This document shows, piece by piece, positions 2,565-59,122 of a stretch of DNA of 64,000 nt. The DNA comes from a virus, in IMG/VR virus record IMGVR_UViG_3300045988_182393, positions 1 to 64,000 of that record; one strand, 5' to 3'. Numbering within the stretch: position 1 is the first letter of the stretch; every line of letters begins with the position of its first letter. A model generated the notes under the pieces. That model was given only the letters and a program-made list of their open reading frames with translations. It searched no databases and was not told the origin of the DNA. Made by a program: the position numbers and the translations under genes.

Positions 2565-2582
2565 GTGCGAATCGTATATAAT
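2565..2582 (+). promoter_or_regulatory. Conserved element-specific promoter box GTGCGAA-N5-TATAAT
   Basis: ggtgcgaa tcgta tataat, 37 nt upstream of the phosphoesterase RBS. Confidence 0.6.
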
Positions 2583-2618
2583 CTAAATAGTAAACACAAA
2601 AAAGAGAGGTGAAGAGCC

Positions 2619-3344
2619 ATGAAGGTCTTAGTCATTCCAGATTGCCATTTGAAACCCTGGATGTTTGCGCAGGCAGATGCCATCGTGAAGAAGGGCATTG
2701 CGGACAAGGCCGTCTGCCTTATGGACTTGGCAGATGATTTCGGGGTACATGGTGATGCACAGTATCTGGAGACCTATGAAACCGCAATCGCGTTTGCCAA
2801 GGAACATCCAGATACTCTCTGGTGCTACGGGAACCATGACCTGAGCTACATCTGGGGAAAACCGGAAACCGGATACCATCCGGAAAAAAGAGGGCTGGTG
2901 TGTCAAGAAATTAAAAAGTTGACAAATACCTTGCCAAAGAAAAGTCAGCTTGCATATATCCACAAAATTGACAAAACACTTTTCATGCACGGCGGCCTTG
3001 CAAATCTCTTTGTTCAGCTCCGGGTAGCACCACAGAACCGAAAAAATGTTCTCGCGGCTGTCAAAGCTATCAACCAAATGAGTTGTGAAACAATGTGGGC
3101 AACAGATTCTCCTATCTGGTATCGCCCGCAGCTGTCTCCAAATCAGAATGCAAAACGTTTGTATCGCGGCGGCAAATATCTGCAAGTGGTGGGGCATACG
3201 CCAGTCAAAGAAGTACACTTGGAAGACGGAGTTCTTTCCTGTGATACTTTCTCGACCTATCGTGACGGAACCCCATACGGGTCACAGGCTTTTTGTATCG
3301 TGGATACCATTACTTTGGAGTTTGAGACAGTTAAAGGCGGATGA
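2619..3344 (+). CDS. Calcineurin-like metallophosphoesterase
   Basis: VIPDCHL (DxH), LMDLADDFG (GDxxDxG-like) and YGNHD (GNHD/E) motifs. 241 aa. Confidence 0.8.
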   Translation: MKVLVIPDCHLKPWMFAQADAIVKKGIADKAVCLMDLADDFGVHGDAQYLETYETAIAFAKEHPDTLWCYGNHDLSYIWGKPETGYHPEKRGLVCQEIKKLTNTLPKKSQLAYIHKIDKTLFMHGGLANLFVQLRVAPQNRKNVLAAVKAINQMSCETMWATDSPIWYRPQLSPNQNAKRLYRGGKYLQVVGHTPVKEVHLEDGVLSCDTFSTYRDGTPYGSQAFCIVDTITLEFETVKGG

Positions 3345-3374
3345 GTGCCGATAAAACAAGCGTTGAGAGAAACG

Positions 3375-3391
3375 GTGCTATATGCTATAAT
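3375..3391 (+). promoter_or_regulatory. Variant of the conserved promoter box (GGTGCTA-N-TATAAT)
   Basis: ggtgcta tatgc tataat. Spacing is 1 nt shorter than the canonical copies. Sits upstream of a hairpin-rich leader (aaagggacgtcccttt palindrome, cttacggag/ctccgtaag) before 3602. Confidence 0.35.
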
Positions 3392-3601
3392 ATTTTCAAG
3401 TTCAAGAACCACAGCCGATACAATCTCAACGAAGAGCTTGATACCTGCTTGAAACTGCACAGCAATAAAAAACAAATATCAAATAACAGAAATGCAGCTT
3501 AAAGAGAAAGGCTGCCATATAAAATAGCAAGAAACGTTTGCAAAAATAGCAATCAGCGCGAAAGGGACGTCCCTTTCCTTACGGAGAAGAACTCCGTAAG
3601 G

Positions 3602-4597
3602 ATGGGTTCTGGCTGCTTCCTGCGCTGCGCGGGGGTGGCACATCTGGGCAAACTGATTGACCTGTATTCTTATCCGGTCAGAACGGCAATGCGGTTTCTG
3701 CTGGAAGATAAGACGACAGGTGAAAATATAATCTGGGCAACAAACACTTATGAACGATATGGCGATGGCTATCGGCAGGATAATCAAATTACGCCGGAGC
3801 TGATTTCCGGGGTATACGCCAATCTTATCCAGCCGCGTATTTTGAAAGCAGAAGAAGAACAGGCGGCAAGAACGAAATCCAAAGCCGAGGTCTTTACGCC
3901 CTCTTGGGTCGTCTGCTATATGAACAATAAATGCGATGACGATTGGTTTGGACGCGAGAACGTATTTAATACACTGAACGGCGAACACTGGGAGCCAACG
4001 AAAGAGCCTGTTTACTTTGAGAAAGAACGGGATTGGCAGCGGTATGTTGATTCTCGGCGGCTGGAAATCACCTGCGGCGAGGCCCCTTATCTGGTGTCCC
4101 GCTATGATGCCGCTACGGGTGAAGGACTGCCGATTGAAAGCAGAATCGGGATTCTGGACAGAAAGCTGCGGGTCGTGAACGAGAACACCGATAACGAGAC
4201 TGACTGGCTGAAATGGACGCGGCGGGCGTTTGAAAGCACCTACGGCTACGAATATCAGGGTGACAACCTGTTGGTTGCGCGTATCAACCTGCTCATGACC
4301 TTTGTGGACTATATGCAGGAGCGATGGCGGCGGGAGCCGACTGCCAAGGAACTGAACCGGATTGCCAATGTAATTTCATGGAACATATGGCAGATGGACG
4401 GCCTGAAAGGGACGATTCCGGGCAAGGAACTGTACATATCAGACGACTACGAGCAGCTATCCCTGTTTGCAAGTGACTTTGAACAGGAAACGCTGTTCGA
4501 TGAGGCGGCTAAGCAGAATAAAAAGTACGAATGTAAAATCCGTGATTGGCGTGCTATGCGGACAATCACTTATAACCAAATGAAGGGAGAGAAATAA
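3602..4597 (+). CDS. N-terminal (motif X / degenerate motif I) half of a split gamma-class N6-adenine DNA methyltransferase
   Basis: KAEVFTPSWVV (motif X, xxFTPxxVV) and LEITCGEAPYLV (degenerate DPxCGSGxFL). Ends 6 nt before the NPPY-containing ORF, which lies in another frame with its own RBS. Confidence 0.55.
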   Translation: MGSGCFLRCAGVAHLGKLIDLYSYPVRTAMRFLLEDKTTGENIIWATNTYERYGDGYRQDNQITPELISGVYANLIQPRILKAEEEQAARTKSKAEVFTPSWVVCYMNNKCDDDWFGRENVFNTLNGEHWEPTKEPVYFEKERDWQRYVDSRRLEITCGEAPYLVSRYDAATGEGLPIESRIGILDRKLRVVNENTDNETDWLKWTRRAFESTYGYEYQGDNLLVARINLLMTFVDYMQERWRREPTAKELNRIANVISWNIWQMDGLKGTIPGKELYISDDYEQLSLFASDFEQETLFDEAAKQNKKYECKIRDWRAMRTITYNQMKGEK

Positions 4598-4602: not shown

Positions 4603-5640
4603 ATGAAGTTCGATTATGCCATTGGTAACCCTCCATATAATGCTGACTTTTCTATTTCTGGTGACAATGGGAAGTTTGCGGCCCCCGTTTATAATCTTTT
4701 TATGGACGCTGCATACGGTATTGCGGATAGAGTTGAATTGATTCATCCGGCACGTTTTTTGTTTAATGCGGGAAGTACGCCGAAGGCATGGAATGAAAAG
4801 ATGCTTAATAATAAGCATTTTAAGGTTTGTTACTATGAGCCTGATTGCAAAAAAGTGTTTTCGAATACAGATATTAAAGGTGGCGTAGCGATAACTTATT
4901 ATGATAGAACTCGTGAATATGCGCCAATTCAAGTTTTCACTCCATACGAAGAACTAAATGGCATTTTGCAAAAGACCAGAAAGTATAGTGAAAAGTCAAA
5001 TGTTGGTGATGTCGGCATTTCTAGTTATGCTTATCATTTCACGCCTATAATGCATAGAGAGCATCCTGAGGTAAAGGCGTTCCAGAGCAAAGGCCATGAG
5101 AATGACTTGAAGTCAAATATTATAGCCAAATTGCCAATGATTTTCTTTAAGGAAAAGCCTGATAATAAGGACTATATTACAATTATGGGACGTTTAGATA
5201 ACGAGAGAGTATCTATGTTTATTCAGCGTTCCTATATCAATGTGGTTAAGAATTTGGATAGCTATAAGATTTTCTTGCCAAAAGCGAGTGGAGTTGGTGA
5301 GTTTGGAGAAGCCCTTGCCCCTGCTATAATTGCAATGCCAGGGGTTGGACACACAGAAACTTTTTTCAGTATAGGCAATTTTTCTACATTGCAAGAGGCG
5401 GAAAATCTACTTAAGTATCTCAAATCAAGATTTGCTCGTGCATTGCTATCAATCTTAAAGAAGACGCAAATGATAACGCCGAGCAATTTTAAATTTATTC
5501 CCCTTCAAGACTTCACTCCCAACTCCGACATTAACTGGTCGGCTTCCATCCGCGACATTGACCAGCAGCTCTACAAGAAGTACGGTCTTTCCCAGCAGGA
5601 AATCGACTTCATCGAATCTCATGTAAAGGAGATGGCATAA
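4603..5640 (+). CDS. Catalytic (NPPY) half of an Eco57I-like N6-adenine DNA methyltransferase
   Basis: MKFDYAIGNPPYNADF (motif IV) then PARFLFNAGSTPKAWNEKMLNN (Eco57I-family P..FL....K.R..LL block). RBS aagggagag. Confidence 0.75.
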   Translation: MKFDYAIGNPPYNADFSISGDNGKFAAPVYNLFMDAAYGIADRVELIHPARFLFNAGSTPKAWNEKMLNNKHFKVCYYEPDCKKVFSNTDIKGGVAITYYDRTREYAPIQVFTPYEELNGILQKTRKYSEKSNVGDVGISSYAYHFTPIMHREHPEVKAFQSKGHENDLKSNIIAKLPMIFFKEKPDNKDYITIMGRLDNERVSMFIQRSYINVVKNLDSYKIFLPKASGVGEFGEALAPAIIAMPGVGHTETFFSIGNFSTLQEAENLLKYLKSRFARALLSILKKTQMITPSNFKFIPLQDFTPNSDINWSASIRDIDQQLYKKYGLSQQEIDFIESHVKEMA

Positions 5641-9556: not shown

Positions 9557-9574
9557 GTGCTTTTGGTGTATAAT
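9557..9574 (+). promoter_or_regulatory. Promoter (GTGC-N8-TATAAT variant) of lipoprotein gene 1
   Basis: gtgc ttttggtg tataat. The whole upstream region is duplicated upstream of the paralog at 10797-10814. Confidence 0.45.
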
Positions 9575-9605
9575 AGCTCTGACAAACAGAAAAAAGGAGA
9601 ACACT

Positions 9606-10700
9606 ATGAAAAAGGTTGTATCATTAGCACTTTCGACTTTGCTCGTCCTCTCGTTGGCTGCCTGTGGCAAGGCAGACAGTTCTGCTGCAGCCTCAAGTGA
9701 ATCCAAGTCAAGTGCTTCGTCGTCAAGTGCTTCGTCAAATAGCACTTCCAATAGCACGCAAGATTACAGCCCTGACGGGATTAAAGTAGGAGAGACATAT
9801 ACTACAGAAGACGGCAAAACATATGAAAGGGTGTGGAACGGCACAGGCAGCGATTTACCTACGCCGTCCCCCGAACCCAAAATTACATACGATAATGATT
9901 TCCAGGCACAAACACTTGTTGATAATGAAGAATGCACCATTATCTTGCAGAGCGTAGGCTACGATGATGATTACGGCTATTATTGGAAGCTTTACTTCAA
10001 GAATAAGACATCAGATAAAAAACTCGGTTACTCGTTTGGCGACTGCACATTGAATGGCGTGGGTGCGAGCCTTTGGCTTACGAGTGTTGAACCTGGTCAA
10101 GAGGAAACGGAGATTCATCATTGGGAAAGTTCCGGGCTTAAAATTTATAACATCAATCCGCAGGATATCAATACGGTAAGTTTTTATCTCGATGTCTATA
10201 ACGAATTAGATTATGATGTTATCCCACGGCATGACTTTGTTGATGACGATTTCGTGGTTTATCCAAAAGGGGAAGAAAACGCAACCGAGCCAAAGCATGA
10301 AACCCAACCCACAGACCTCGTACTGGCCGACAATGACGCTTGCACTCTGATGATTTGTGGATTTGACCCCGATGGCCTGGACGGTTACACGGCTAAAGCT
10401 TACATCGAAAACAAAACAGATAAAGAAATCATGCTTGCCTTTAGAAGTGGAGGTTCCATAAATGGCTTTGAGTGCTTCCCTGAAACAGATACAATGGGAA
10501 TTGATGCGCACACTAATGCCTATGTAGACATCTACTATCGCGATTATTTGGATACTTATGAGGCCAACGGTAAAGACCCCACCTCTATCACCGAAATGGT
10601 GATGCCAATCGTTATAAACAATTTCAATACTCGGGACATCTATGTAGATGAGACTTTCACTATTAACCCTCAGACAAATTCCGTGACAACATCGAAATAA
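9606..10700 (+). CDS. Secreted lipoprotein (paralog 1), Ser-rich linker + repeated beta-rich domains
   Basis: MKKVVSLALSTLLVLSLAAC lipobox. Shares blocks TIILQSVGYDDDYGYYWK, DDDFVVYPKGEE and DPTSITE-VMP with 10845-11867. Confidence 0.75.
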   Translation: MKKVVSLALSTLLVLSLAACGKADSSAAASSESKSSASSSSASSNSTSNSTQDYSPDGIKVGETYTTEDGKTYERVWNGTGSDLPTPSPEPKITYDNDFQAQTLVDNEECTIILQSVGYDDDYGYYWKLYFKNKTSDKKLGYSFGDCTLNGVGASLWLTSVEPGQEETEIHHWESSGLKIYNINPQDINTVSFYLDVYNELDYDVIPRHDFVDDDFVVYPKGEENATEPKHETQPTDLVLADNDACTLMICGFDPDGLDGYTAKAYIENKTDKEIMLAFRSGGSINGFECFPETDTMGIDAHTNAYVDIYYRDYLDTYEANGKDPTSITEMVMPIVINNFNTRDIYVDETFTINPQTNSVTTSK

Positions 10701-10796: not shown

Positions 10797-10814
10797 GCGC
10801 TTTTGATGTATAAT
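10797..10814 (+). promoter_or_regulatory. Promoter of lipoprotein gene 2 (duplicated copy)
   Basis: gcgc ttttgatg tataat. Flanks are about 85% identical to 9530-9640. Confidence 0.4.
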
Positions 10815-10844
10815 AGCCTTATACAAAGAAAAAAGGAGAAAATC

Positions 10845-11867
10845 ATGAAAAAGGTTGTATCATTAGCACTTTCGGCTTTGCTTGTACTTTCCCTGGCCGC
10901 CTGTAGCAGCTCTAACACTACCAGTACTGCTGCCAGCAGTGCAGCTACATCTGATGCTGCATCCTCCGAGGAAAGCACCAGCGACTCTTCAACGAGTACT
11001 GCAAGTAGTGCTGCCGATAGTACAACGGCTGAACCTGACATCCAGTTCGATGAGAGTTTCCAGCCACAGACGATTGCCGACAACGATACCTGTACCATCA
11101 TCTTGCAGAGCGTTGGCTATGATGATGACTACGGATACTACTGGAAGATTAACTTCCAGAACAAAACGGACGACAAGACTCTATGCGCTATCACAAGCAG
11201 TTCATCGCTGAACGGAATCCCAGCCGATACCAGCTGGTTCCCGGAAATCGGACCCGGAGAAGAGGTTACTGAAGTCGTTTCGTGGGACAGCGAAGGACTG
11301 GAAATCTATGGAGTGAAACCGCAAGACATCGATACCGTCAAACTTCACATCGATGTCTATGATGAAGCAGAATGGGATGTGTCGAATCGTGATGACCCTA
11401 TCGATGATGACTTTGTGATTTATCCGAAAGGTGAAGAGAAAGCGACAAAACCAAAACACGAGATTCAGCCCACGGATATTGTGCTGTTCGACAATAATGC
11501 CTGCAGCATGGTCGTTTGCGGATTTTATTCTGATAGTTTCATGGGCTATACGGCGAAAGCCTACTGTCAGAACAAGACGGATGACCGTATCGATATCATT
11601 TTGGACAAAGGCTCTATCAACGGCTTTGAATGTACCCCAGAAGGAGCGGCACTACTGGAACCACATTCTAATGCCTACGTGGATATCCGTTGGCAGGAAT
11701 ATGCCGGAACCTACGCAGAAAATGGCAATGACCCAACATCCATCACAGAAATTGTAATGCCAGTTTTTGTGAGAAAAGACACAGGGAGCAATACGGTATA
11801 CATTGACGCCACTTATTCTATTGACCCGCAGGCAAGAACAGCAACGCCGATAGTGAATCCCCAATGA
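10845..11867 (+). CDS. Secreted lipoprotein (paralog 2)
   Basis: MKKVVSLALSALLVLSLAAC lipobox. Tandem duplicate of 9606-10700 including the 5'UTR. Confidence 0.75.
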   Translation: MKKVVSLALSALLVLSLAACSSSNTTSTAASSAATSDAASSEESTSDSSTSTASSAADSTTAEPDIQFDESFQPQTIADNDTCTIILQSVGYDDDYGYYWKINFQNKTDDKTLCAITSSSSLNGIPADTSWFPEIGPGEEVTEVVSWDSEGLEIYGVKPQDIDTVKLHIDVYDEAEWDVSNRDDPIDDDFVIYPKGEEKATKPKHEIQPTDIVLFDNNACSMVVCGFYSDSFMGYTAKAYCQNKTDDRIDIILDKGSINGFECTPEGAALLEPHSNAYVDIRWQEYAGTYAENGNDPTSITEIVMPVFVRKDTGSNTVYIDATYSIDPQARTATPIVNPQ

Positions 11868-15182: not shown

Positions 15183-15487
15183 TGAGTTGTAGCTGGAGGT
15201 GTATCTCATTTTGTGCCAGGGGTATTGTATGGTAGTTTTCGAAAATGAGTACAAAAAAACAAACACCAGAAGTCAAACTCAAAAATATCTTAGTCTTGGC
15301 AAGTTTACCCTTGCGCCGCTGTGCGAACCTCATAAAATAGAAATTGTACAAGAGAAACGGCAAGTGACGTTCATCGCGATTGTAGTTGGTCGCCACGAAT
15401 CGATGCCGTGTCTGCTTGCGCATAATTACCTCTTTTCGAAGCCCACAGGTCATTCTCTCACCTGTGGGTTTTGCTTATTGCGGAATC

Positions 15488-15505
15488 GTGCGAATTGCAG
15501 ACAAT
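15488..15505 (+). promoter_or_regulatory. Conserved promoter box GTGCGAA-N5-GACAAT
   Basis: gtgcgaa ttgca gacaat upstream of the flotillin gene. Confidence 0.55.
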
Positions 15506-17291: not shown

Positions 17292-17374
17292 TTGTGACGC
17301 AAACGAAAAGTTCATGGTAGCCATCCAATTAGGGTGACTGTCTTTTTTGCATGTTAAGGCTTTGTTGCTGAATC

Positions 17375-17392
17375 GTGCGAATCGAAGATAAT
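17375..17392 (+). promoter_or_regulatory. Conserved promoter box GTGCGAA-N5-GATAAT
   Basis: gtgcgaa tcgaa gataat upstream of 17463. Confidence 0.5.
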
Positions 17393-20291: not shown

Positions 20292-20664
20292 CAGTTGCAC
20301 AGCCGTGCAAATTGCATACAATGGGAATTGGAGAACAAAAAAAGCGATGCAAGGATGTATTTGTAATAAATGTGGCGGCTGTTTTTGGTATTCGCGAAAC
20401 AACACGAAATTAAACGAAACGCGAAGAGGATACAAGAAAAGACGAATGAAATCCGGCTGAGGCGGATAATACTTGTGCCGAGTAGTTTAAAGTCCGGACA
20501 ATGGGACAGCTAAAGTGGTAAAATGAAACTAGGAATACCTAAAATCAGAGTTAACCGAAAAAACAAAAACCATGAATGAATAATTGGTTGCTAAAAAGTA
20601 ACCGCTCGCTTTTATACCCAAACCAACAAATGACCCAAATCTGTTTAGGAAGGATAGATACAAA

Positions 20665-22872: not shown

Positions 22873-22891
22873 CAAAAATAGTTGCCCATTT

Positions 22892-22909
22892 GTGCGAATT
22901 GCAGACAAT
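22892..22909 (+). promoter_or_regulatory. Conserved promoter box GTGCGAA-N5-GACAAT
   Basis: tgtgcgaa ttgca gacaat. Confidence 0.55.
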
Positions 22910-22993
22910 CAGAAATAAAGCGTAAAGCAAAGGAGCTGAGTACCATCTCAAAATTTGCAAGCAAAAAGTTGATTGAGCGAAATTGCAATATCA

Positions 22994-23436
22994 TGAAAGA
23001 CTACGGCAACGGCTATTCCATTGAGGAGCTTGCCGCAAAATACAGGTTGAGCGTCCGTACATGCTATCGAGCGTTAGACGACGCGAAACAGGAGGCCAGA
23101 ATTCAGTTGGCGCAGGTAGAGGATGCTAGAAAGGCCGAAATTCTTGCGGCATACAAGAACAGTGTCCCTCTCAAGGAAATGATTGCGAAATTTAACGTGG
23201 CAGAAGGATATTGCAGCATGGTTGCCAACGATGCGGGCCTGACTGAAAACCGTAGAAATGAGCGCATCAAAATTCGGCAAAAACCCCGCAATGAGAATAT
23301 CTTTCGAGAATACGAGAGTGGCGTGCCGGTGCAGAAACTATCCGAAAAATATCAGCTCTCGGTTCCGGGCATTTACAAAGTGATTCAAAGAGTCAGAAAG
23401 CAGAAGGAGGCGATGGAGTTTTGCAATGGATTGTGA
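22994..23436 (+). CDS. Tandem-HTH-repeat DNA-binding protein (3 resolvase/sigma-region-4-like HTH modules)
   Basis: Repeats YSIEELAAKYRLSVRTCYRAL / VPLKEMIAKFNVAEGYCSMV / VPVQKLSEKYQLSVPGIYKVI. Start inferred at the first in-frame ATG. Confidence 0.55.
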
Positions 23437-24059: not shown

Positions 24060-24102
24060 CTCCGATAACTGGTATTCACAGACAATATCATGTTGCGAAA
24101 CT

Positions 24103-24120
24103 GTGCGAATTGCAGACAAT
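24103..24120 (+). promoter_or_regulatory. Conserved promoter box GTGCGAA-N5-GACAAT
   Basis: ctgtgcgaa ttgca gacaat upstream of 24160. Confidence 0.55.
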
Positions 24121-27072: not shown

Positions 27073-27122
27073 TTATTGACAAACGGCGCAAAAGGTGCTT
27101 GAGTTAAAAGCCATTGCAAAAA

Positions 27123-27140
27123 AGTGCGATATCCATATAA
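27123..27140 (+). promoter_or_regulatory. Conserved promoter box GTGCGAT-N5-TATAAT
   Basis: agtgcgat atcca tataat upstream of 27172. Confidence 0.5.
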
Positions 27141-27171
27141 TAAATTGAAATTCAAAAGGGAGATACACATT

Positions 27172-27780: not shown

Positions 27781-27848
27781 GAAATTTTTTCCCGTGTGAG
27801 CAGCGACGCTCATGCGGGAATTTTTTTGTAATTTTCTATTGTCAATCT

Positions 27849-27866
27849 GTGCGAATTACGTACAAT
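27849..27866 (+). promoter_or_regulatory. Conserved promoter box GTGCGAA-N5-TACAAT
   Basis: ctgtgcgaa ttacg tacaat. Confidence 0.55.
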
Positions 27867-31997: not shown

Positions 31998-33884
31998 TCA
32001 CTGAACAACTTCGCCAAGGTCATTTGCGTATTTCGGGTCACACATCATGAAATAGTTGACGGGGCCGTACTCCAGACCGAGCTCCTGCGCGTATGCCTTG
32101 ATGACTTCCAGAACGTCCTCTTTCTTGAGGCCAAACTTGGAATGCAGACGGGCAAACTCTTTGTCAGAGACAGAAACGCAAGAGCAATTTTCTGCATCGG
32201 TTTCTTTGCTGCCCAGCATCCCGTCAAAGATGTCCTGCCCTGCACAGAGAATCGTCTCATTGTTCATCGCATAGGCGATAACGGAAGCCTTACAGTCAAA
32301 GTCGCTGTCTTCCACAAGGAAATCCTCAGGGCGGCCGTGACGTTCAACAACGTTTTCATAGATGTCCCGGAGTTCGATAGGAGCAGAAGGAGCGGTCAGC
32401 GCTGCTTTATGAAGGCGCATGAATTCCACAAACTTTTCATCCGAGAGGGTATCAGTATAAAAGCCGATGCCGGAAACGCGAACCTTCACTTCGCTGGCAA
32501 AGTAATCGTCAATTTTGGAGACGATTTTCTGTTGAACCCGCTTGTACGCTTCCTGAACATTGGAAGCCGTGTAAAATACCGGGAACTTCATGATGTCGAT
32601 TCCCTCCGGCAGACTCGCGTCATAGGCCGCATCAATGCCGCCTCGCAGCGCCGGAACCGCGTCATGCAGCTCTTTCACAGAAGAAATGTATCCGGTAATG
32701 TACAGCTCATCGTTTTTGCTGTAATGCCCGATAAGTCCCACATAGAGGGTCTGCATCAGCATCCGCTTGAAGCTGAACCAACATAGACGAATGGGTAGAA
32801 TGACATTAGCAGCCGTACCTTCCGCACGATAGGTGCCGGGGGCAGAGACCTTTTCCAGCAGAATCTGGTCGTTCTTGTCGCCGTATTTTTCCTTGAAAAG
32901 AGCTTGAAGAATTTCAGTGGACGAAAGAGGAGTGGACATTGGAATCGTTTCATTCAGAAAAGAGAGGAATGCATCCACGTTGTCTTTCTGCCATGCGTCA
33001 TCAGACATGCTTGCACGCTGCATAGAGAGCTTGTCTTTCCCGTCGTCAGGCAAGGGCTCATACCCACAGGCGATACGAAGCTCGTTCTCCGTGACAGCAT
33101 CCGTTGCGCTTGCAATTTTCTTGATGGTATTCTCGGTCGGCTGAGCTTTTGCGTTGCCATTCACGAGGCTGCTGATATACCCACGAGTCAGTCCTGCCTG
33201 AAACGCAAACTTACCCTGTGTTCGGGTTCCGATGGCTTTTTTAACCAGCGATGCCAGCCTTTGAAAGTCGGGCTCTTTGGGAAAAGTGGCCTCCGTATCC
33301 TTATTGCCGTTCTTTTCAAGTACCGACTTGTCCCAACCGGTGACAAGAGAATACCCAATATCCTTCAAGGATTGATAGGCAACCCCGTTCTGGTCAAGAG
33401 CCGGGGAGTATGTACCGCTGTTATCTTCCAGCTGCTCTACTGCGTCACGCACCATCCTTGCTTCGTTCATCAGGATGACGTCCGGGGCTTCAAGCCGGGC
33501 AAGACTCTTGTACCGATTATTGAGGCGCTCGACTCGTGCGGCCAATGCAGTGATGTTGGCAACTTGGTCTTCCGTTGCATGGGCAGAGATATCTGCACCA
33601 AGTTCAAAATGGTTCAGTGCAGGAATATCCACGCCTTTGCTCTTGGCGAATTCCACAATGGCTTCCGCGCCATAAAAACGCTTCTCATGGGTTGCGACAA
33701 CTTTCGTTATCGTGTCGGCCGAGTTGTCCAGCTCAAGCACTTCACCTTTTCCGGCATCCTCGACATAACACCTGGCGTTGGTGAGAAAGCCTTTCAAAAA
33801 ATCAGCATCCACATCCAGCTTTTTAGCGATGTCGGGCAGCTGCTTATAGAAAATCACGGGCGTGGCGAGGTTAACATAAATCAT
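31998..33884 (-). CDS. Large (628 aa) protein with a central XRE/Cro-C1-type HTH
   Basis: FAFQAGLTRGYISSLVNGNAKAQPTENTIKKIASA resembles an XRE HTH. Divergent from the + operon starting at 34256. Confidence 0.55.
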   Translation of the reverse strand: MIYVNLATPVIFYKQLPDIAKKLDVDADFLKGFLTNARCYVEDAGKGEVLELDNSADTITKVVATHEKRFYGAEAIVEFAKSKGVDIPALNHFELGADISAHATEDQVANITALAARVERLNNRYKSLARLEAPDVILMNEARMVRDAVEQLEDNSGTYSPALDQNGVAYQSLKDIGYSLVTGWDKSVLEKNGNKDTEATFPKEPDFQRLASLVKKAIGTRTQGKFAFQAGLTRGYISSLVNGNAKAQPTENTIKKIASATDAVTENELRIACGYEPLPDDGKDKLSMQRASMSDDAWQKDNVDAFLSFLNETIPMSTPLSSTEILQALFKEKYGDKNDQILLEKVSAPGTYRAEGTAANVILPIRLCWFSFKRMLMQTLYVGLIGHYSKNDELYITGYISSVKELHDAVPALRGGIDAAYDASLPEGIDIMKFPVFYTASNVQEAYKRVQQKIVSKIDDYFASEVKVRVSGIGFYTDTLSDEKFVEFMRLHKAALTAPSAPIELRDIYENVVERHGRPEDFLVEDSDFDCKASVIAYAMNNETILCAGQDIFDGMLGSKETDAENCSCVSVSDKEFARLHSKFGLKKEDVLEVIKAYAQELGLEYGPVNYFMMCDPKYANDLGEVVQ

Positions 33885-34119
33885 GGTGTACTCCTTTCAA
33901 ATATGTCATTAGCTGTACAATGCTGTCATCTTCTGTAATTATAATAGCACATCCCGCACCAAAAAGCAAGCATGAATTTACAATAAATGACAAGAAAATA
34001 CACGAGATGACATATTTGGGCAAAGCGGTTGATTTTTGGCATTTCCTGTTCAGCAACGGAACAAGTCCCATGTGCCTTGTCTTTGTCACGGCTTTGCCAT
34101 ATTTTTGCCTTGTGCATCC

Positions 34120-34137
34120 GTGCGAATTGAATATGAT
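34120..34137 (+). promoter_or_regulatory. Conserved promoter box GTGCGAA-N5-TATGAT
   Basis: ccgtgcgaa ttgaa tatgat, in a divergent intergenic region. Confidence 0.5.
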
Positions 34138-38590: not shown

Positions 38591-38596
38591 AAGTTA

Positions 38597-40007: not shown

Positions 40008-40162
40008 GGGCGAAATTAGAACTATAATCTTTTATGCCACCTCATTGCATAATTGTAAATTATAAAAACAAATGGTATAATGTAAATAATACAAACCGCC
40101 ATCCAGCACTAAACTCAAATACCAAAAAATCAAACAAATCCCATCACGAAAGGAGCCATACC

Positions 40163-40627
40163 ATGTCCACCCTCAAAAACGGTGAGTTCGGCATCGACTT
40201 GGACAAGGAGAAAATTCTCTGGACTGACCGCAAGCGCCACACTATCTTTTCTCTGCCGCTGTCCTTTACGAAGTACACCCTGACCGAGACCAAACTCATC
40301 ATCCAGCGTGGCTGCTTTAATCTGCGCGAGGATGAGATTCAGCTGTACCGCGTCCGGGACATCGCGTTCAAGCAGAACTTCTATGAGCGTCTGTGCCGTG
40401 TTGGTAGCATTCATCTCTGCTCCACGGATGCCATGACACCGGAAATCGATATCCGTCGTATCAAGAACCCGCGTGATGTCAAGGAAGTGCTTTCTAAGAC
40501 CATCGAGGCTTGCCGGAAAGCGAACGGTATCCGTACTTCGGAAATCATCGGGGACCATGGTCACTTCCCAGAGCCTGCCCCGCATGGTATGCCGCCTGAA
40601 CCTTGCCACGAACATCCCCATGACTAA
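40163..40627 (+). CDS. Bacterial PH-domain (bPH_2/YdbT-like) protein
   Basis: RBS aaaggag. TKYTLTETKLIIQRGCFNLREDEIQLYRVRDIAFKQ resembles bPH_2. Confidence 0.5.
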   Translation: MSTLKNGEFGIDLDKEKILWTDRKRHTIFSLPLSFTKYTLTETKLIIQRGCFNLREDEIQLYRVRDIAFKQNFYERLCRVGSIHLCSTDAMTPEIDIRRIKNPRDVKEVLSKTIEACRKANGIRTSEIIGDHGHFPEPAPHGMPPEPCHEHPHD

Positions 40628-40630
40628 TAC

Positions 40631-40670
40631 CAGCCCGTACAGATTCAGTTCTGTGCGGGCTGTTTTTTGT
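40631..40670 (+). terminator. Rho-independent terminator
   Basis: cagcccg...cgggctg then tttttt. Confidence 0.65.
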
Positions 40671-40922
40671 TTCCAAAAGAAATTTGAAATCCGGTCTGGT
40701 CGGATTCATGAGGTATAACGGTTGACCGATTATGCGAACCTCATACAAGTCAACTACCCAACCTGAAGGAGGGGTGTACTAAGATTGGCCTTGAATACAA
40801 GCAGGTTAGCAGCTTCTCCGACCACATGCAGCGGATGACTGTTGAGGAGTTTGGCGAACGCCTGAAGGAACAGTGGAAGGTTTTGATGAGAGACCTGAAA
40901 TAAACTGCCACCGAAAAGAATA

Positions 40923-40960
40923 ACCTACCTGCCACAAGCAGGTGGGTCTTTTTCTTTTTG
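40923..40960 (+). terminator. Rho-independent terminator
   Basis: acctacctgc-cacaa-gcaggtgggt then ctttttcttttt. Confidence 0.6.
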
Positions 40961-41295
40961 TACTGGCAGCAGCCTAAAGAGGAGGGAGCCGCCCAATGAA
41001 ATGCCTATTCCAGAACGTCTTAAATTGACTCGTGGTGCGATTCGCATAGAATGAAAAGAAATGAAACAGAAAGCGAGATGAGTATAATGTTTGCAATGTG
41101 TCGAGATGGCTCAACCGTTCATGCCTTTGGAAACGCCATCAGTGTCAGCGGCCGGGGCATGAGTGAAACCTATGTTTTATGTGGGAACATGCTCACCGGC
41201 CCTCATGGGTTCAGGTCGATGAACTGCAGGAGCATCGACGAGGAGTTTTGCCTGGTGTGCGGTGTACACGGCGGCAAGAATTGGTGAAGCAAAAT

Positions 41296-41399
41296 CCTTG
41301 ATTTGTGTTGTTTTTTGGGTGTGTTAAGGTCTTGATTTGTGTAGGATTTTACCCTTTCATAGGTCTTGATTTGTGTTAAGTCCTGAGACAAATACAAGA
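41296..41399. repeat. Iteron/operator-like array: 3 direct copies of (C/G)TCTTGATTTGTGT at ~34-bp spacing plus one inverted partial copy
   Basis: 41296-41309, 41329-41342, 41364-41378. Inverted gacaaatacaag at 41386-41399. Confidence 0.6.
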
Positions 41400-41439
41400 A
41401 ATCGCGAACCCGATATAAGAAATTTTGTATTGCTACAGC

Positions 41440-41457
41440 GTGCGAATTGCATACAAT
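41440..41457 (+). promoter_or_regulatory. Conserved promoter box GTGCGAA-N5-TACAAT
   Basis: gcgtgcgaa ttgca tacaat. Confidence 0.55.
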
Positions 41458-41886: not shown

Positions 41887-42063
41887 TTGACAATGTGTGC
41901 GAGATGACTATGATAGATATTGTATTAAAGATACCACTTACCAATTTACTTTTTAACATTCCGCTTTTGCAAGGACAGCCTCATTTTGAGGTTGTCCTTT
42001 TTGTTTTGCAGAAGCGACCGACCCGCTGTGGAGATTGCATCAAGAGCAGCACCCGGAACTATC

Positions 42064-44610: not shown

Positions 44611-44796
44611 TATTTGTTGCGTAGCTGCGCTTTTTGCCGTTGGAACCGTAGGTGCCAGGATGCGTAGCTGCCGACATGACTTGACCTGATGTGCGAGGCT
44701 CGTACAATCAGATTTGTACGACAGATATCAAACACAAAATAGGGTTTATATTGAGTTGCTCAGTGGCCTTATGGCTGTTGGGCTGCTTTTTCTTTT

Positions 44797-44814
44797 GTGC
44801 GAACTGCGTACAAT
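44797..44814 (+). promoter_or_regulatory. Conserved promoter box GTGCGAA-N5-TACAAT
   Basis: tgtgcgaa ctgcg tacaat. Confidence 0.55.
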
Positions 44815-46900: not shown

Positions 46901-47026
46901 AGCAGAACACCAACGACAACAACCATCAAGGCTGTACAAGATTATGCGCTCATTCGCAAGTTGCGGGTTGGCGTTCTTTTTTGCCCAAAAAACAAAAATA
47001 AAACATAGCAAAAGCCTTGCACATCT

Positions 47027-47044
47027 GTGCGAATCAGATATAAT
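47027..47044 (+). promoter_or_regulatory. Conserved promoter box GTGCGAA-N5-TATAAT
   Basis: tctgtgcgaa tcaga tataat. Confidence 0.55.
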
Positions 47045-47069
47045 AACCCTAATAAGATAAGAATTGTGC

Positions 47070-47112
47070 CCTGGCGGCTTCTGAATTGGATGCTGCCGGG
47101 GCATTTTGTTTG
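47070..47112 (+). terminator. Leader hairpin/terminator-like structure between the promoter box and the helicase start (attenuator-like)
   Basis: gccctggcggc-ttctgaattggat-gctgccggggc then attttgtttg. Confidence 0.35.
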
Positions 47113-53730: not shown

Positions 53731-53813
53731 CGCTTGCCAAAATATACGAACGCCGTACAATGTAAAGTGTGAACAGATACTAAGCAATCAGTAGGATTCA
53801 CAATCTGTATTTT

Positions 53814-53856
53814 AAGCGGACTTATCCCATAGCGGGGTAGGTCCGCTTTTTTTGTT
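53814..53856 (+). terminator. Rho-independent terminator
   Basis: agcggac...gtccgct then ttttttt. Confidence 0.7.
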
Positions 53857-53872: not shown

Positions 53873-55033
53873 ATGAAAATCAAAAACAAGCTTTTACGGA
53901 GTACAGCGGCAATCATCGCTGCGCTCTTTGCACTCAGCTTCACCGGCTGCGGTCAGAGTCCGATAATATCGGAAAGTCCATCCAGTATCGGGGTCGTCTC
54001 AGAAAGCACTGTGAGCAGTGACCAGACAGCTGGCGATTCGGTGGACGGCAGCTTTACGATTCACTTTATAGACGTAGGGCAGGCGGATTCCGCCCTTATC
54101 ACCTGTGACGGCCACTCAATGCTTATTGATGGCGGTAATGTAGATGATTCTAACCTCTTATATTCTGTTATGCAGCGTGAAACCGATGGGCACCTGGATT
54201 ATGTCGTTGGGACTCACGCGCACGAAGACCACATCGGCGGCTTGTCCGGTGCTTTTGAGGCCGTCACTGCGGACATGACTCTATGCCCTGTGACAGAATA
54301 CGACAGCAAAGCATTTCGGGACTTTGCAAGCTACGCGGAACAGAAAGGCGGAGGCATCACGATACCGGATGTGGGTGAAACCTACACTCTGGGGGAAGCG
54401 GAATTCACGATAGTTGGTGTTAATTCTGCTCCCGATGATACGAACAATGCATCGATTGTTCTGCGCATCGTTTATGGGGATACTTCGTTCCTCTTTACTG
54501 GTGATGCTGAACAGGAAGCCGAAAATGTGATACTTGCATCGGGACAAGACATTCAGTCAACGGTTCTGAAAGTAGGTCATCACGGCTCAAACACATCCAC
54601 ATCGGAAGCCTTTCTGGATGCAGTGAATCCGACCTATGCTGTGATTTCCTGTGGAGCAGGGAACAGCTATGGCCACCCGCATCAGGAAACACTCGACAAG
54701 CTGCAAAACAAGGGTGTTGAGGTTTATCGCACAGACCTGCTGGGTGATATCTATTGTACCTCGGATGGCAAAGAGGTAAGTTTCACTTCCGGTGAATATC
54801 ATGATGAAAACCGGATTGAAGCCGGTAGTGCTGCAGATTCCAAGGATGAACAGGACAAAGCTTCACTTGTCATAGACGAGACATACGTTCTGAACACGAG
54901 CACTATGAAGTTTCACAAACCCGATTGCTCTGCAGTCGAATCGATGAGTCAAAAGAATCGAATCGACTATATGGGGCCCCGCGATGAGCTCATCCAGGAA
55001 GGGTATTCGGCGTGTGGGATTTGCAAACCATAA
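53873..55033 (+). CDS. Lipoprotein with ComEC/Rec2-type metallo-beta-lactamase fold hydrolase domain
   Basis: Lipobox LSFTGC. HFIDVGQADS, GTHAHEDHIGG (HxHxDH), GDAE, KVGHHGS. Confidence 0.75.
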   Translation: MKIKNKLLRSTAAIIAALFALSFTGCGQSPIISESPSSIGVVSESTVSSDQTAGDSVDGSFTIHFIDVGQADSALITCDGHSMLIDGGNVDDSNLLYSVMQRETDGHLDYVVGTHAHEDHIGGLSGAFEAVTADMTLCPVTEYDSKAFRDFASYAEQKGGGITIPDVGETYTLGEAEFTIVGVNSAPDDTNNASIVLRIVYGDTSFLFTGDAEQEAENVILASGQDIQSTVLKVGHHGSNTSTSEAFLDAVNPTYAVISCGAGNSYGHPHQETLDKLQNKGVEVYRTDLLGDIYCTSDGKEVSFTSGEYHDENRIEAGSAADSKDEQDKASLVIDETYVLNTSTMKFHKPDCSAVESMSQKNRIDYMGPRDELIQEGYSACGICKP

Positions 55034-55061
55034 AAATTGCACCTGATTTACTCGACAAGCT

Positions 55062-55079
55062 GTGCGAACCGACTACAAT
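55062..55079 (+). promoter_or_regulatory. Conserved promoter box GTGCGAA-N5-TACAAT
   Basis: ctgtgcgaa ccgac tacaat. Confidence 0.55.
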
Positions 55080-55149
55080 AAAAATTGTACGATAGATAAC
55101 ATTCTATATCGAAAGGGTTTTATGCCTTTCGTACATTCACAATTTCGCT

Positions 55150-55192
55150 TAAAGGGCGGACTTCCTGTTTTTAGGGAGCCCGCCCTTTTTGT
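55150..55192 (+). terminator. Intrinsic-terminator-like hairpin inside the leader between the promoter box and 55217 (attenuator-like)
   Basis: aaagggcgg...ccgcccttt then ttg, preceded by a cgaaagg...cctttcg hairpin. Confidence 0.45.
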
Positions 55193-55216
55193 ATGAACAA
55201 GAAGGAGCGTAATGCA

Positions 55217-55957
55217 ATGTTCAAAATTCACGATGACAAAGTCTATTTCGTCGCCGAAACCCCCGATATCAACAAAGTTATCGAAATCTTCCTACCTAAG
55301 GATGACCGTGGCACCATTATGGATTCACACGAAATCCGTGTGGACCTGTGCCGTGCCGTCATTCACATGGAGAAGGAGGGTGTCCGTGTCTTGAAGGTCC
55401 GCAACATTGAGGATACCAACAAGGCAAGCATCGACATCTGGCACATGCCGGAATATCAGGAGGCTGCAGAGTCTCCCGTAAGCGATGTGGTCAATGCCTG
55501 CATTGAGTCCTGCTTTGATTCCGGTGCAATGTTCAATCTGCCATGCAAAGCCAACCGCAAAACCCATGAAGTTTTTGCTGTCGAATGCTGCGCAAGCCCC
55601 GATGATGATGACTCGTTCAGTTATGCAGAAGTGAAAATCAACGGCAAGGATTATCCTATCAATTTTATTGACGATATTCTTCTCGAAAACAATGTTGATG
55701 ATGCGCTGGATGAGTTTTATAGAATTCAGCAGACAGGCGAGTATTGGCAGCCTGATGGCAACAAAACGCTGGATGATGCCATTCACGAATGTCGTTGGGC
55801 TATCCTGAAGGATGCCATCCAGAAGCGCGGACATGAGGCTGTTGCTGATTTTGTCGGGACCGACATTTCCAGCGATACTTACGACCGCGTGATGGATGAA
55901 ACCGAAGCCCAGATGCCGGACGAAGAGTTCGAGCGCTTCTGGGAAAAGTACATCTAA
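55217..55957 (+). CDS. hypothetical protein (first gene of the radical-SAM operon)
   Basis: RBS aaggag. ~246 aa. Confidence 0.5.
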   Translation: MFKIHDDKVYFVAETPDINKVIEIFLPKDDRGTIMDSHEIRVDLCRAVIHMEKEGVRVLKVRNIEDTNKASIDIWHMPEYQEAAESPVSDVVNACIESCFDSGAMFNLPCKANRKTHEVFAVECCASPDDDDSFSYAEVKINGKDYPINFIDDILLENNVDDALDEFYRIQQTGEYWQPDGNKTLDDAIHECRWAILKDAIQKRGHEAVADFVGTDISSDTYDRVMDETEAQMPDEEFERFWEKYI

Positions 55958-57421: not shown

Positions 57422-57491
57422 ACCATATCACTTATACATTGCCACTGTTTTCCTACAGAAACGGTGGCTTTTTTAGAAAAGGAGACCACAA

Positions 57492-58925
57492 ATGACTGAA
57501 ACAAAAGACATGTTTGAACAAATCAGCGCCATCTTAACCGATAAGAAAGATAAGCCGTTTTCTTATGAGGAGCTTGCAGCAATGCTCAAAACTGACCCTG
57601 ATGCCCTCAAAACCTTTGATGAGGTCTATAAGACACAGGTTCTTGAAAGCGGAGAGCTGCATGAAAATATGCTCCAGTGGGATACAGCTACAGTCAAAGC
57701 AATTCTCGACAAAAAGGTCTACTTCCCACCGGAACTCAATTCGCTCATTGACCGCATCGTCACAGAACTGGTGCTTGAAACGCGTCTGTACATCTACAAC
57801 GCGGAACGCGGTGGCTATTATGTGACATACTCTGCCAACCGCGACTTTATGACAGAGGTTACAAACGAGGAGTTGAAACGCTACCCCGAAGAACTCCGTC
57901 CGCAGCTCACCGGAAAGTTGATGAAGATTGACATTTCTGAGCCGTCGTACAAGGAACTGCTTCAAAACTACGCAGGCTACAAGAATGCAAAGAACGACAG
58001 CACAAAAATGTTCTACCACAACATGTTCCGTCAAGGTCTTGACATCCTCGACCTTGATGACTTCACTTATCAGATGCTTGAGATGAACCCCAACTCTATG
58101 GGCTTCTGGTTTCCTCCTCTGGTAGAGGGATTGTACGGCAGCGCATTTTTCAAGGTTCCGGACACAAAAATTCTTCGCGTACCTATCACCATGCTGCAGC
58201 TTACCCGCCTTGGTTTCGAGACGTTGAATCCCGTTACAAAGGAAATCGTGAACCGTTATTGCCAGAAAGTCTTCCATCTTGATGGATACGAAGACTATTT
58301 TATCAAAACGGGCACGTATTCTTCCAAATACGAATTCCGCAACGCTCATATCCATAACCCGAAGGAAATCAATGAGATGGGCGAGTATTTCTTGTTTTTG
58401 AATCATCTGACATGCTCGATGGCATCCCCTCTGAACAATCGCTGCTTCTACGGCGCGAACACCACGAACGAGTGGGTCGTCAGAGAATACATCAAGGACA
58501 AAGAAAATAACCCCACCATCTACAACGGTTTGCCGCTGCACACTGAATATCGCGTGTTTGTGGATTTTGATACAAAGGAAATCCTTGGCGCAAGTCCTTA
58601 TTGGCGCAGCGATGTTATGAAGAACGAATTCAAAAAAGTCAGCAGCCCACAGGAACGCCATGATTATGTTGTCTACAAGATGCATGAAGACATTCTGAAC
58701 CAGCGTTACCACGAAAGCGTTCAAACTGTTCTGGCTGAGCTGAAGAAGGTTATTCCTCGCATTGAGTTGACAGGGCAGTGGAGCGTCGATGTAATGCGCA
58801 ACGGCAATGATTACTACATCATTGATATGGCGCTTGCTGAGAACTCTGCTCTGAATGACTGCGTGCCGAGTAACCGCCTTCGTGCTTATCCGCAGCAGTG
58901 GCTGCCGGGTGAATCGAACAGCTGA
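57492..58925 (+). CDS. ATP-grasp-fold protein
   Basis: YFIKTGTYSSK (K/Gly-rich loop), WVVREYIKD (QEYI-like), QWSVDVMRNGNDYYIIDMALAENS (C-terminal vD...yyiiEvN). Confidence 0.55.
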   Translation: MTETKDMFEQISAILTDKKDKPFSYEELAAMLKTDPDALKTFDEVYKTQVLESGELHENMLQWDTATVKAILDKKVYFPPELNSLIDRIVTELVLETRLYIYNAERGGYYVTYSANRDFMTEVTNEELKRYPEELRPQLTGKLMKIDISEPSYKELLQNYAGYKNAKNDSTKMFYHNMFRQGLDILDLDDFTYQMLEMNPNSMGFWFPPLVEGLYGSAFFKVPDTKILRVPITMLQLTRLGFETLNPVTKEIVNRYCQKVFHLDGYEDYFIKTGTYSSKYEFRNAHIHNPKEINEMGEYFLFLNHLTCSMASPLNNRCFYGANTTNEWVVREYIKDKENNPTIYNGLPLHTEYRVFVDFDTKEILGASPYWRSDVMKNEFKKVSSPQERHDYVVYKMHEDILNQRYHESVQTVLAELKKVIPRIELTGQWSVDVMRNGNDYYIIDMALAENSALNDCVPSNRLRAYPQQWLPGESNS

Positions 58926-59018
58926 TACTCCTAGAACGAAACTTTGATTCGGATTCTTTCAGCAGAAAGCGTTGGAATCAAAATCATACAAATTGATTGT
59001 GCGAAAGCAATAGCAATC

Positions 59019-59057
59019 AAGACCACTACCCCAAAAAGGGTAGTGGTCTTATTTTTT
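59019..59057 (+). terminator. Rho-independent terminator
   Basis: aagaccactaccc-caaaaa-gggtagtggtctt then attttttg. Confidence 0.8.
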
Positions 59058-59104
59058 GCACAATACTTACCATAAATTACCAGAAAGAAAAACATTGTGC
59101 ATCT

Positions 59105-59122
59105 GTGCGAATTGCATATAAT
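59105..59122 (+). promoter_or_regulatory. Conserved promoter box GTGCGAA-N5-TATAAT
   Basis: tctgtgcgaa ttgca tataat. Confidence 0.6.

Follow-up and report, generated by a model that had tools for sequence, protein, structure and literature searches.

Near-identical promoters with a TGCGA spacer block ahead of accessory cassettes in a large mobile-element family of human-gut Clostridia

Described systems and the box promoters

Element-specific promoter boxes of early or establishment regulons are well known, as are promoter/terminator composites that mediate the shuffling of gene modules. Here we analyze a box of this type in a 64,000-nucleotide stretch of viral DNA (IMG/VR record IMGVR_UViG_3300045988_182393, positions 1 to 64,000; the whole stretch is called the window below), in which the heptamer GTGCGAA recurs 5 nt upstream of -10 hexamers at operon starts. 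One precedent is SPBRE of the Bacillus phage SPbeta, likewise a short element-specific sequence repeated across the promoter regions of a large phage (about 10 of them). It was spotted by inspection and predicted in silico, and decades later it proved to be the operator of the master repressor MrpR (PMC10516654), for which a burst of expression followed by silencing is experimentally established (PMC10516654). The two differ in that SPBRE spans 15 bp and is bound by a recombinase-fold protein, whereas the core of the present box measures 5-7 bp, has a fixed position in the spacer, comes in far greater numbers (at least 20 copies per 64 kb) and is linked with leader terminators. Nor was any gene for an MrpR-like protein seen.

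A second comparison is with the EGeRS2/Reg576 system of p576/pLS20 clade II plasmids, where strong sigma-A promoters with a shared operator drive several variable anti-restriction and establishment operons (PMC8708921) and where burst-then-silencing has also been established by experiment (PMC8708921, PMC6294495). Its autoregulated regulator and the transient expression after entry (PMC8708921, PMC6294495) belong to that system itself, and would be further likenesses if the box works in the same way. Unlike the box, however, its operator consists of dual heptamers (TTATCCC-N2-TTATCCC) that lie outside the core promoter and bind an RHH protein, it comprises 4 promoters as opposed to dozens, and it has no leader RNA/terminator module.

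The PeSLs of T4-type phages combine a terminator with a conserved early promoter beside variable open reading frames in hyperplastic regions (PMC2839356, PMC4122927), and act as homologous crossover points for modular shuffling. The present family is similar in both respects, since in 43 of 105 non-redundant box promoters the 60 nt before the -35 contain a terminator, and two junctions between variants fall inside the promoter core. PeSLs are found in Gram-negative T4-like myoviruses, though, and have no invariant spacer block, downstream terminator or structured RNA. The box cassette behaves like a PeSL without belonging to that class: a 20-kb megablast query matched neither GenBank phages nor PLSDB plasmids, and the host is a gut Clostridiales. 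The CUP repeats in the leading region of the IncN plasmid pKM101, which Delver and Belogurov reportedly described in 1997, are said to bear promoters and to head anti-restriction genes under the plasmid repressors ArdK/ArdR. They are much longer, stand in a Gram-negative plasmid and have no sequence relationship to the box; ArdK is mentioned as a repressor (PMC6289460).

What is new relative to these systems is the TGCGA core at a fixed spacer position, the scale (at least 20 copies per 64 kb, and hundreds across the gut element family), the regular association with a leader terminator and with a structured RNA that Rfam lacks, and an unusual candidate regulator. The reading that we prefer, an even call in our judgement, is that the box is the operator of an element-encoded regulator, placed in the spacer of self-sufficient sigma-A-type promoters of accessory and anti-defence cassettes. 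The binding of a protein at the box, repression, its timing and the identity of the regulator are what we infer from the sequence.

Box promoters: occurrence, anatomy and crossovers

A 28-nt matrix of the form TTGnnn-N4-GTGCGAA-N5-TAnAAT, derived from the 13 copies listed in the initial annotation, has 20 matches with a score of at least 12 on the + strand of the window and none on the - strand. Intergenic DNA accounts for 10.0 of the 64 kb (16%) and contains all 20 matches. The exact pattern GTGCGAA-N5-TAnAAT occurs 8 times on the + strand and never on the - strand, against 0.01 expected, while the relaxed pattern TTG-N7-[GTA]TGCGA[AGT]-N5-[TG]AnnnT occurs 14 and 0 times, respectively, against 0.04 in shuffles. 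The bare heptamer is mildly enriched (18 copies, 17 of them on the + strand, vs 10.1 expected), and those at 63, 5976, 21248, 58999 and 2321 (-) are outside any promoter context. The motif is real, element-specific and far beyond chance: a motif search over the window and its relatives finds the patterned box far above chance, tied to the -10 and recurring in the relatives. The view that it marks the operon starts of a single element-specific regulon is supported.

The 13 listed copies are all present, with one coordinate corrected from 27123 to 27124, and the matrix adds seven more, with heptamers at 15321, 20305 (GTGCAAA), 40732, 41035, 41897, 44691 and 53744. A + strand gene lies downstream in every case except one, which precedes a bare terminator. 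The box is thus upstream of gene starts as annotated, at a measured distance of 41-155 nt instead of 40-130 nt; the starts are our own calls combined with database calls.

The promoters had been described as lacking a conventional -35. In the consensus of the 13 copies, TTGc..AtctGTGCGAATTGcATAcAAT, a near-invariant TTG is found exactly 10 nt before the heptamer, and since this conserved TTG is separated from the -10 by 16 bp, the description is wrong. In the consensus cTTGc..a.ctGTGCGAAttgcaTAcAAT, the TTG, the TGCGA and the TA..AT are equally informative, and N4 and N5 are variable. The -35 is mostly of the TTGC, TTGT or TTGAC type, with TTGCCA, TTGCAC and TTGACN as the commonest forms, and the -10 is TAGAAT, TACAAT, TAAAAT or TATAAT, with the 16-bp spacer in almost all copies. 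The heptamer occupies about -24 to -18 and its core TGCGA about -23 to -19. It is not an extended -10, in agreement with the initial annotation, because the N5 consensus ttgca/cnGca has no TG at -15/-14.

The box promoters thus have the elements expected for sigma-A, that is, a TTGACA-related -35 and a TATAAT-related -10 at 16 bp, and they look competent for the bare host sigma-A holoenzyme. Promoters retrieved through their leader, i.e., found independently of the heptamer (a set that is only partly independent), carry GTGCGAA in 39 cases, GTGCGAG in 9, TTGCGAA in 8, ATGCGAA in 7 and a few other forms, the invariant core being TGCGA. The register between box and -10 is identical in 68 of 75 promoters. 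When orthologous promoter pairs are compared, the flanks, N4, N5 and the hexamer positions change and the core rarely does. The same element also has promoters without the box, namely those of the umuC-like operon and at 3363, 9557 and 10797. The sequences at 3375, 9557 and 10797, previously taken as weaker variants, are TTGAGA-17-TATAAT or TGnTATAAT extended -10 promoters and not box copies.

These features bear on the model in which promoters without a -35 are recognized through GTGCGAA by an element-encoded alternative sigma factor or an appropriator. With the TTGnnn-16 bp-TAnAAT arrangement such a factor is unnecessary, and the block, being 5 nt from the -10, is too close to it to act as a surrogate for the -35. 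Of the roughly 50 window proteins that were scanned, none was identified as a sigma factor or as a homologue of sigma region 2. The helix-turn-helix (HTH) modules of the repeat proteins described below do give weak sigma region 4-type matches, and there is a weak association of the consensus TTGAC -35 with a non-G first base of the heptamer (p=0.03). We consider this model extremely unlikely. The part of it that stands is sequence-specific recognition by some factor, to which the selective conservation of TGCGA points.

It is also conceivable that no regulator is involved. The block would then be part of an optimised strong promoter that is read by the host RNA polymerase through a spacer contact of the beta' zipper/Z-element type, and its uniformity would reflect shared ancestry together with frequent recombination or gene conversion between cassettes, as in the T4-type PeSLs. 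The hexamers and the spacing are sigma-A competent, PeSLs are indeed conserved early promoter/terminator composites without a dedicated regulator (PMC4122927, PMC2839356), and the promoter cores with their leaders form ~130-nt repeats of ~90% identity beside unrelated flanks, with crossovers inside them. However, TGCGA equals the -35 TTG and the -10 in conservation while N4 and most of N5 vary freely, and it stays nearly invariant even with unrelated leaders and flanks, which argues for a sequence-specific factor. In addition, the presence in the element of other, apparently functional promoters without the block argues against a general property of the host polymerase. An explanation by the polymerase alone is unlikely in our view. 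Taken together, the good hexamers, the selectively conserved block and its absence elsewhere in the element favor a dedicated factor, and not an alternative sigma.

The crossovers can be followed in variants of the window that lose or replace blocks, with junctions at boxes or terminators. The alignments place the crossover of one variant (L004), which joins the 34120 context to that of 47027, at the -35, and that of another (L005), which joins 34120 to 41440, at a point after the heptamer and before the -10. An ungapped pairwise census of junctions is confounded by indels and is used here qualitatively only. Near-identical cores and leaders next to unrelated cargo would serve as crossover points. 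The segment 44681-44783 is an "empty cassette", in which a promoter and a truncated leader run into a terminator without any gene, and the next box promoter (44787) follows immediately; it looks like the scar of a cassette loss.

Another possibility is that a host global regulator binds the box, such that the element senses the physiology of its host. Spo0A boxes are found in the early promoters of phi29, the 0A box being TGNCGAA. The heptamer shares CGAA with this sequence and the hosts are Clostridiales, but TGCGAA is one base shorter than TGNCGAA and there is no TGTCGAA-type variant among about 200 copies. As there is furthermore no resemblance to LexA (GAAC-N4-GTTC), sigma-54 or cre sites, we regard a host regulator as very unlikely. 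Several known site types were rejected on inspection, namely a sigma-54 -24/-12 promoter (wrong spacing), a LexA/Cheo box (no GTTC half), the Spo0A 0A box (one base longer than TGCGAA), Rex and cre sites, a Frpo-like single-strand promoter (here no hairpin contains the promoter) and an integron-like core site (no integrase; homology explains the crossovers).

The individual promoters, all on the + strand, are as follows. Among those annotated initially, TCGACG-N4-GTGCGAA-N5-TATAAT (2555..2582) has a metallophosphoesterase gene downstream at 2619, TTGCGG..GTGCGAA..GACAAT (15478..15505) is the second of two promoters before the flotillin gene at 15599, and TTGCTG..GTGCGAA..GATAAT (17365..17392) precedes the gene at 17463 and the VWA operon. 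TTGCCC..GTGCGAA..GACAAT (22882..22909) is found before an HTH-repeat gene at 22993, TTGCGA..GTGCGAA..GACAAT (24093..24120) before the gene at 24160 and an AcrVA2-like gene, and TTGCAA..GTGCGAT..TATAAT (27114..27141) before the gene at 27172, while TTGTCA..GTGCGAA..TACAAT (27839..27866) has a leader terminator downstream. TTGTGC..GTGCGAA..TATGAT (34110..34137), which is divergent from the gene of a 628-aa Xre protein, is the crossover site in both L004 and L005, its partners being TTGCAC..GTGCGAA..TATAAT (47017..47044), before a UvrD-like helicase gene, and TTGCTA..GTGCGAA..TACAAT (41430..41457), respectively. TTTTTC..GTGCGAA..TACAAT (44787..44814) precedes the gene at 44838, TCGACA..GTGCGAA..TACAAT (55052..55079) is followed by a complete leader copy, and TTGTGC..GTGCGAA..TATAAT (59095..59122), the best-scoring box, has the HTH operon downstream.

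Of the seven copies that had been missed, TTGCGC..GTGCGAA..TAAAAT (15311..15338) is the first of the two promoters before the flotillin gene and the variant TTGCAC..GTGCAAA..TACAAT (20295..20322) precedes a PLD nuclease gene at 20665. TTGACC..ATGCGAA..TACAAG (40722..40749) is a weak copy with a matrix score of 16.7, and TTGACT..GTGCGAT..TAGAAT (41025..41052) lies shortly after it. TTGACA..GTGCGAG..TATGAT (41887..41914) continues into a leader-like start, TTGACC..GTGCGAG..TACAAT (44681..44708) is the promoter of the empty cassette, and the degenerate TTGCCA..ATACGAA..TACAAT (53734..53761) precedes a variant leader and the gene of an Apyc1-like enzyme of the metallo-beta-lactamase fold (MBL).

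Leader terminators and the structured leader RNA

An intrinsic terminator is found within 120 nt after the -10 in 58 of the 105 non-redundant box promoters, as compared to 4/105 for the reverse complement and 0/105 for shuffled sequences; among promoters with the conserved leader described below the count is 35 of 36. In the remaining 47 of 105, the box is kept although no terminator is nearby. On the + strand of the window, a terminator hairpin at 27900-27926 belongs to the leader of promoter 27849, a second terminator (28167-28191) precedes the helicase gene at 28208, and a leader terminator (34163-34189) separates promoter 34120 from the EcoRI-type methylase gene at 34256. A strong hairpin and T-run before the first gene are also present at 41971-41999, 44758-44783 (the empty cassette), 47066-47103 (before the UvrD-like helicase gene), 53814-53848 (before the Apyc1-like gene) and 59187-59214. 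The last of these is a terminator-like stem just before the ribosome-binding site of the HTH operon, in a 113-nt leader of promoter 59105 that also has a hairpin. No promoter can be recognised directly ahead (28153-28207) of the DEAD-box helicase/NADAR operon (28208-31436), which is preceded by two terminators and a 65-aa open reading frame and therefore appears dependent on read-through from box promoter 27849.

About a third of the box promoters have a conserved structured leader of ~65 nt, which starts 5-6 nt past the -10. It consists of UUGUACGAUAGAUACCA, a short hairpin (UAGAU-ACC-AUCUA), a hairpin of variable sequence and then CGUACAAUUCACAAUUYYGC, and it is followed by a conserved terminator, GCGGACUUCC... 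or GCAGACUCACC..., and the ribosome-binding site. The complete copy in the window (55085..55195, +) comprises P1 (UUGUACG/CGUACA), P1a, the variable P2, the tail UUCACAAUUUCGC and the terminator, with a gene at 55217; partial or variant leaders are found at 41920, 44714 and 53767. The leaders of the HTH operon in three deeply diverged lineages differ in sequence, and all of them keep a hairpin and a terminator before the ribosome-binding site.

A covariance model finds 107 leader copies in 855 kb (loci L023-L121). The model was built on a hand-set three-helix structure, P1 being the only helix recovered by MAFFT/RNAalifold alone. In an alignment fitted to this model, and with sequences that are related, 90% of the helix cells are paired vs 84.5% after shuffling, and 48 cells show double changes vs 10.5 +/- 2.6; none of 500 shuffles reaches the observed value in either case. 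The double changes are concentrated in the variable hairpin P2, and slid controls are far lower. G-U pairs are frequent, and the fold is thus strand-specific, which fits an RNA. Rfam 15 gave no match in the window at the gathering score, and an E-value search of the leader region 55040-55230 gave only sub-threshold chance hairpins. The leader is a candidate attenuator, antiterminator RNA or small RNA.

The terminators raise the possibility of promoter-coupled antitermination, with the spacer box as the DNA loading site of an element-encoded, lambda Q-like antiterminator. Such a factor would board the polymerase at or just after initiation and pass the leader and inter-cassette terminators, and without it each promoter would yield only a ~60-110-nt RNA. 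In a variant of this explanation, the folded leader RNA itself would be an antiterminator element of the put/nut/conAn2/canT kind. At lambda PR', the Q-binding element (QBE) lies between the -35 and the -10, and the lambdoid late switch combines the QBE with a sigma-dependent pause and the terminator tR', such that a short RNA is made unless tR' is read through. The box promoters resemble this arrangement in their putative factor site in the spacer, in a -10-like sequence in the early-transcribed region and in the terminator ~60-110 nt downstream. In contrast to the dozens of promoters here, each lambda phage has a single one.

The position of the box matches that of the Q-binding element, and the rigid register of box, -10 and leader, the high incidence of terminators both downstream and upstream, and the position of the helicase operon behind two terminators are all in line with antitermination. 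So is the -10-like TACGAT that is present 9-14 nt after the -10 in 26 of the 36 leader-class promoters, with TAnnnT at the same offset in 9 of the 69 others vs 1.5 expected. This element is, however, one strand of stem P1, which gives its conservation another explanation. Besides the support for the leader fold, the leader tail (YGC) matches the 5' arm of the terminator (GCR), with an incompatible pairing in 0/18 cases: the combination CGC/GCG is found 18 times, CGC/GCA 0, TGC/GCA 11 and TGC/GCG 9 times. This hints at an antiterminator pairing, but may alternatively be a lineage effect. Cis-acting antiterminator RNAs, conAn and canT, are known from Gram-positive conjugative elements (PMC8191782, PMC11658703). 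On the other hand, no Q, N or LoaP-like gene was found among about 50 window and flank proteins compared with Pfam, NCBIfam and PHROGs, and nearly half of the box promoters keep the box in the absence of a nearby terminator. We judge antitermination to be unlikely.

Candidate regulators, the element and its cargo

Under the operator reading, the regulator candidates are the 628-aa Xre/clamp-like protein and the HTH-repeat proteins encoded behind the best boxes. The latter are a 147-aa protein with Mor/resolvase-type HTH modules (22993..23436, +; the start had been placed at 22994) and the products of three tandem genes, 175, 172 and 317 aa in length (59235..61228, +). The four proteins have 3-6 modules that resemble the DNA-binding domain of gamma-delta resolvase and Mor. 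As stated in the initial annotation, two of the HTH-repeat genes are directly behind boxes, and these are among the best-scoring ones. The HTH/AAA operon recurs at 29-34% identity, always behind TTGCAC-N4-GTGCGAA-N5-TAnAAT, and a box is upstream of it in all four lineages seen. The family of the 175-aa protein (HTH175) is narrow, comprising 78 clusters, all from the gut, in 3-4 closely knit lineages that all have the same box. The AAA ATPase gene that follows in the window (61274-62188) encodes a protein that resembles PHROG 3757 and also, with E=4e-49 but a score under the family cut-off, the NCBIfam "anti-phage ATPase IteA".

The 628-aa protein (31998..33884, -) combines an N-terminal domain similar to the RNA polymerase clamp, with the beta' clamp helices at aa 105-153, and an Xre HTH (aa 222-269). 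Its residues 110-176 are homologous to the clamp helices of E. coli beta' (264-320; phmmer E=1.7e-5), with an NCBIfam rpoC match of 2e-7, and the AlphaFold model has a pLDDT of 84. The clamp-like segment is kept in homologues of 39-56% identity. In the window, as well as in six IMG/VR loci and for a 56% homologue, the gene is divergent from a 34120-type box promoter at a distance of about 300 nt, and the divergent arrangement with a box promoter is found in homologues of 40-56% identity. Sigma region 2 and NusG-family factors dock on the clamp helices of beta', which makes a DNA-bound mimic of the clamp an attractive candidate. A more specific proposal, which we consider distinctly improbable, is that box, fixed-register leader RNA and terminator form a promoter-coupled switch of an undescribed type, present in dozens of copies per genome and run by this fusion of a repressor-type Xre HTH to a clamp mimic, which would capture sigma-A or NusG at TGCGA. 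If true, the 628-aa protein would decide between initiation and read-through of the leader terminator, switching the whole anti-defence cargo.

According to the operator reading, the events would be as follows. When the DNA of the element enters a cell that lacks the regulator, the host RNA polymerase would fire all box promoters together, giving an early, establishment burst of methylases, Acr-like proteins, anti-CBASS/Pycsar-like enzymes, helicases, nucleases, tRNAs and regulators. Once made, the regulator would occupy TGCGA between the -35 and the -10 and shut the whole regulon. In over half of the promoters the intrinsic terminator of the leader would constitute a second checkpoint, the downstream genes needing read-through, and in a third of all box promoters this terminator is preceded by the conserved folded RNA. 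The 28-bp cores and the ~100-nt leaders would double as crossover points for the gain, loss and exchange of cassettes.

Several observations weigh against this reading. A plain repressor explains a short asymmetric heptamer in a rigid register no better than does a factor that touches RNA polymerase (an activator or a Q-like loader) or the polymerase on its own, and the pervasive promoter-proximal terminators point to antitermination rather than occlusion. The box is unchanged despite the divergence of the HTH-repeat proteins to about 30% identity. Concerning the Xre/clamp protein, the promoter of its own gene has no consistent canonical box, only a degenerate or shifted box-like sequence in most lineages, and a 44% homologue is encoded on an 8.8-kb contig without boxes. 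Finally, the family counts are ascertainment-biased, as they rest on loci that were fetched by exact GTGCGAA.

Over the window and its 10-kb flanks, the box copies are restricted to one block. With a score of at least 16, neither the 10 kb before the window nor the 10 kb that follow the AAA gene contain a copy. A lower threshold reveals two leftward box-like sites near the left end, one upstream of the window and the other at ~150, which indicates that the regulon continues leftwards in the opposite orientation. The latter is a weak box-like promoter, GTTGCA..GTGCGAC..TAGAAT, at window ~123-150 (-). The upstream leftward promoter, which has a leader-like start, is present in some variants only, e.g., L016.

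A search of IMG/VR with TTG-N7-GTGCGAA-N5-TAnAAT returned at least 118 loci, and the box was also found in a Clostridiales metagenome-assembled genome (MAG) and in Hadza/ENA contigs. The IMG/VR loci listed are nearly all of 46-50% G+C, and most have no megablast similarity to the window. Most of them carry several co-oriented matrix matches, the exception being one locus with one match per strand. Over all the loci listed there are 218 unique promoter contexts, and the first downstream genes fall into at least 85 clusters, so that this is a family-wide promoter type before unrelated cargo and not a local duplication.

Exact matches to window proteins are encoded on many human-gut metagenome contigs, which reach about 250-350 kb, and relatives are listed as viral contigs in IMG/VR. 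An HTH175 profile search of species-representative genomes gave a single relative, a human-gut "Clostridiales bacterium" MAG. SPbeta-like Staphylococcus phages encode homologues of one window protein. An 886-aa ATPase encoded about 7-9 kb left of the window (L019 505-3165) matches both TraG/TraC P-loop families and a terminase-large-subunit PHROG. The element may be a jumbo (pro)phage or a conjugative megaplasmid, and in either case the box block looks like its early or establishment region. It represents a very large mobile-element family of human-gut Clostridia, with accessory cassettes behind near-identical host-type promoters.

In gene content, the window is an accessory and anti-defence island that is transcribed almost entirely rightwards. 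It encodes an Eco57I-type orphan methylase (4603-5640), an AcrVA2-like protein (24756-25643), NADAR (30984-31436), an EcoRI-type orphan methylase (34256-35515) and the Apyc1-like MBL enzyme (53873-55033), together with a Y-family polymerase, helicases, PLD nuclease, GmrSD-HNH, HEPN, flotillin/VWA and radical SAM proteins. As judged from the predicted proteins, the mix of AcrVA2-like, NADAR, methylase and Apyc1-like genes is the typical composition of an anti-defence island. Many box-driven neighbors of the anti-defence-like genes carry no annotation. The regions 9557-10700 and 10797-11867 hold tandem paralogues, both starting with MKKVVSL and each with a near-identical TGnTATAAT extended -10 promoter; this signal-peptide-like start suggests secreted or surface proteins.

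There are no tRNA genes within the window. To its right, an array of 18 tRNA genes (L007 12989-19351) begins about 1.7 kb past the window end. Such arrays of 9-18 genes come after the HTH/AAA operon, a second example being L142 12871-17284. In this Hadza lineage (L142), a TTGACA..GTGCGAC..GATAAT variant is located directly before the first tRNA gene.

Two testable questions arise from the analysis, one concerning the structured leader RNA absent from Rfam and the other the DNA-binding protein with a predicted mimic of the RNA polymerase clamp. As promoter/terminator parts for use in gut Clostridia, the box cassettes would be compact, and they are probably strong and switchable. For the biology of the elements, the box shows how the cargo is wired, through promoter, leader and terminator, and how it is shuffled, through crossovers in the promoter core. 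The rule TTG-N7-nTGCGAn-N5-TAnAAT delimits the presumed early or establishment regulon of abundant, uncultured gut elements of ~250 kb, and flags for discovery a largely unannotated cargo that is rich in anti-defence-like genes.

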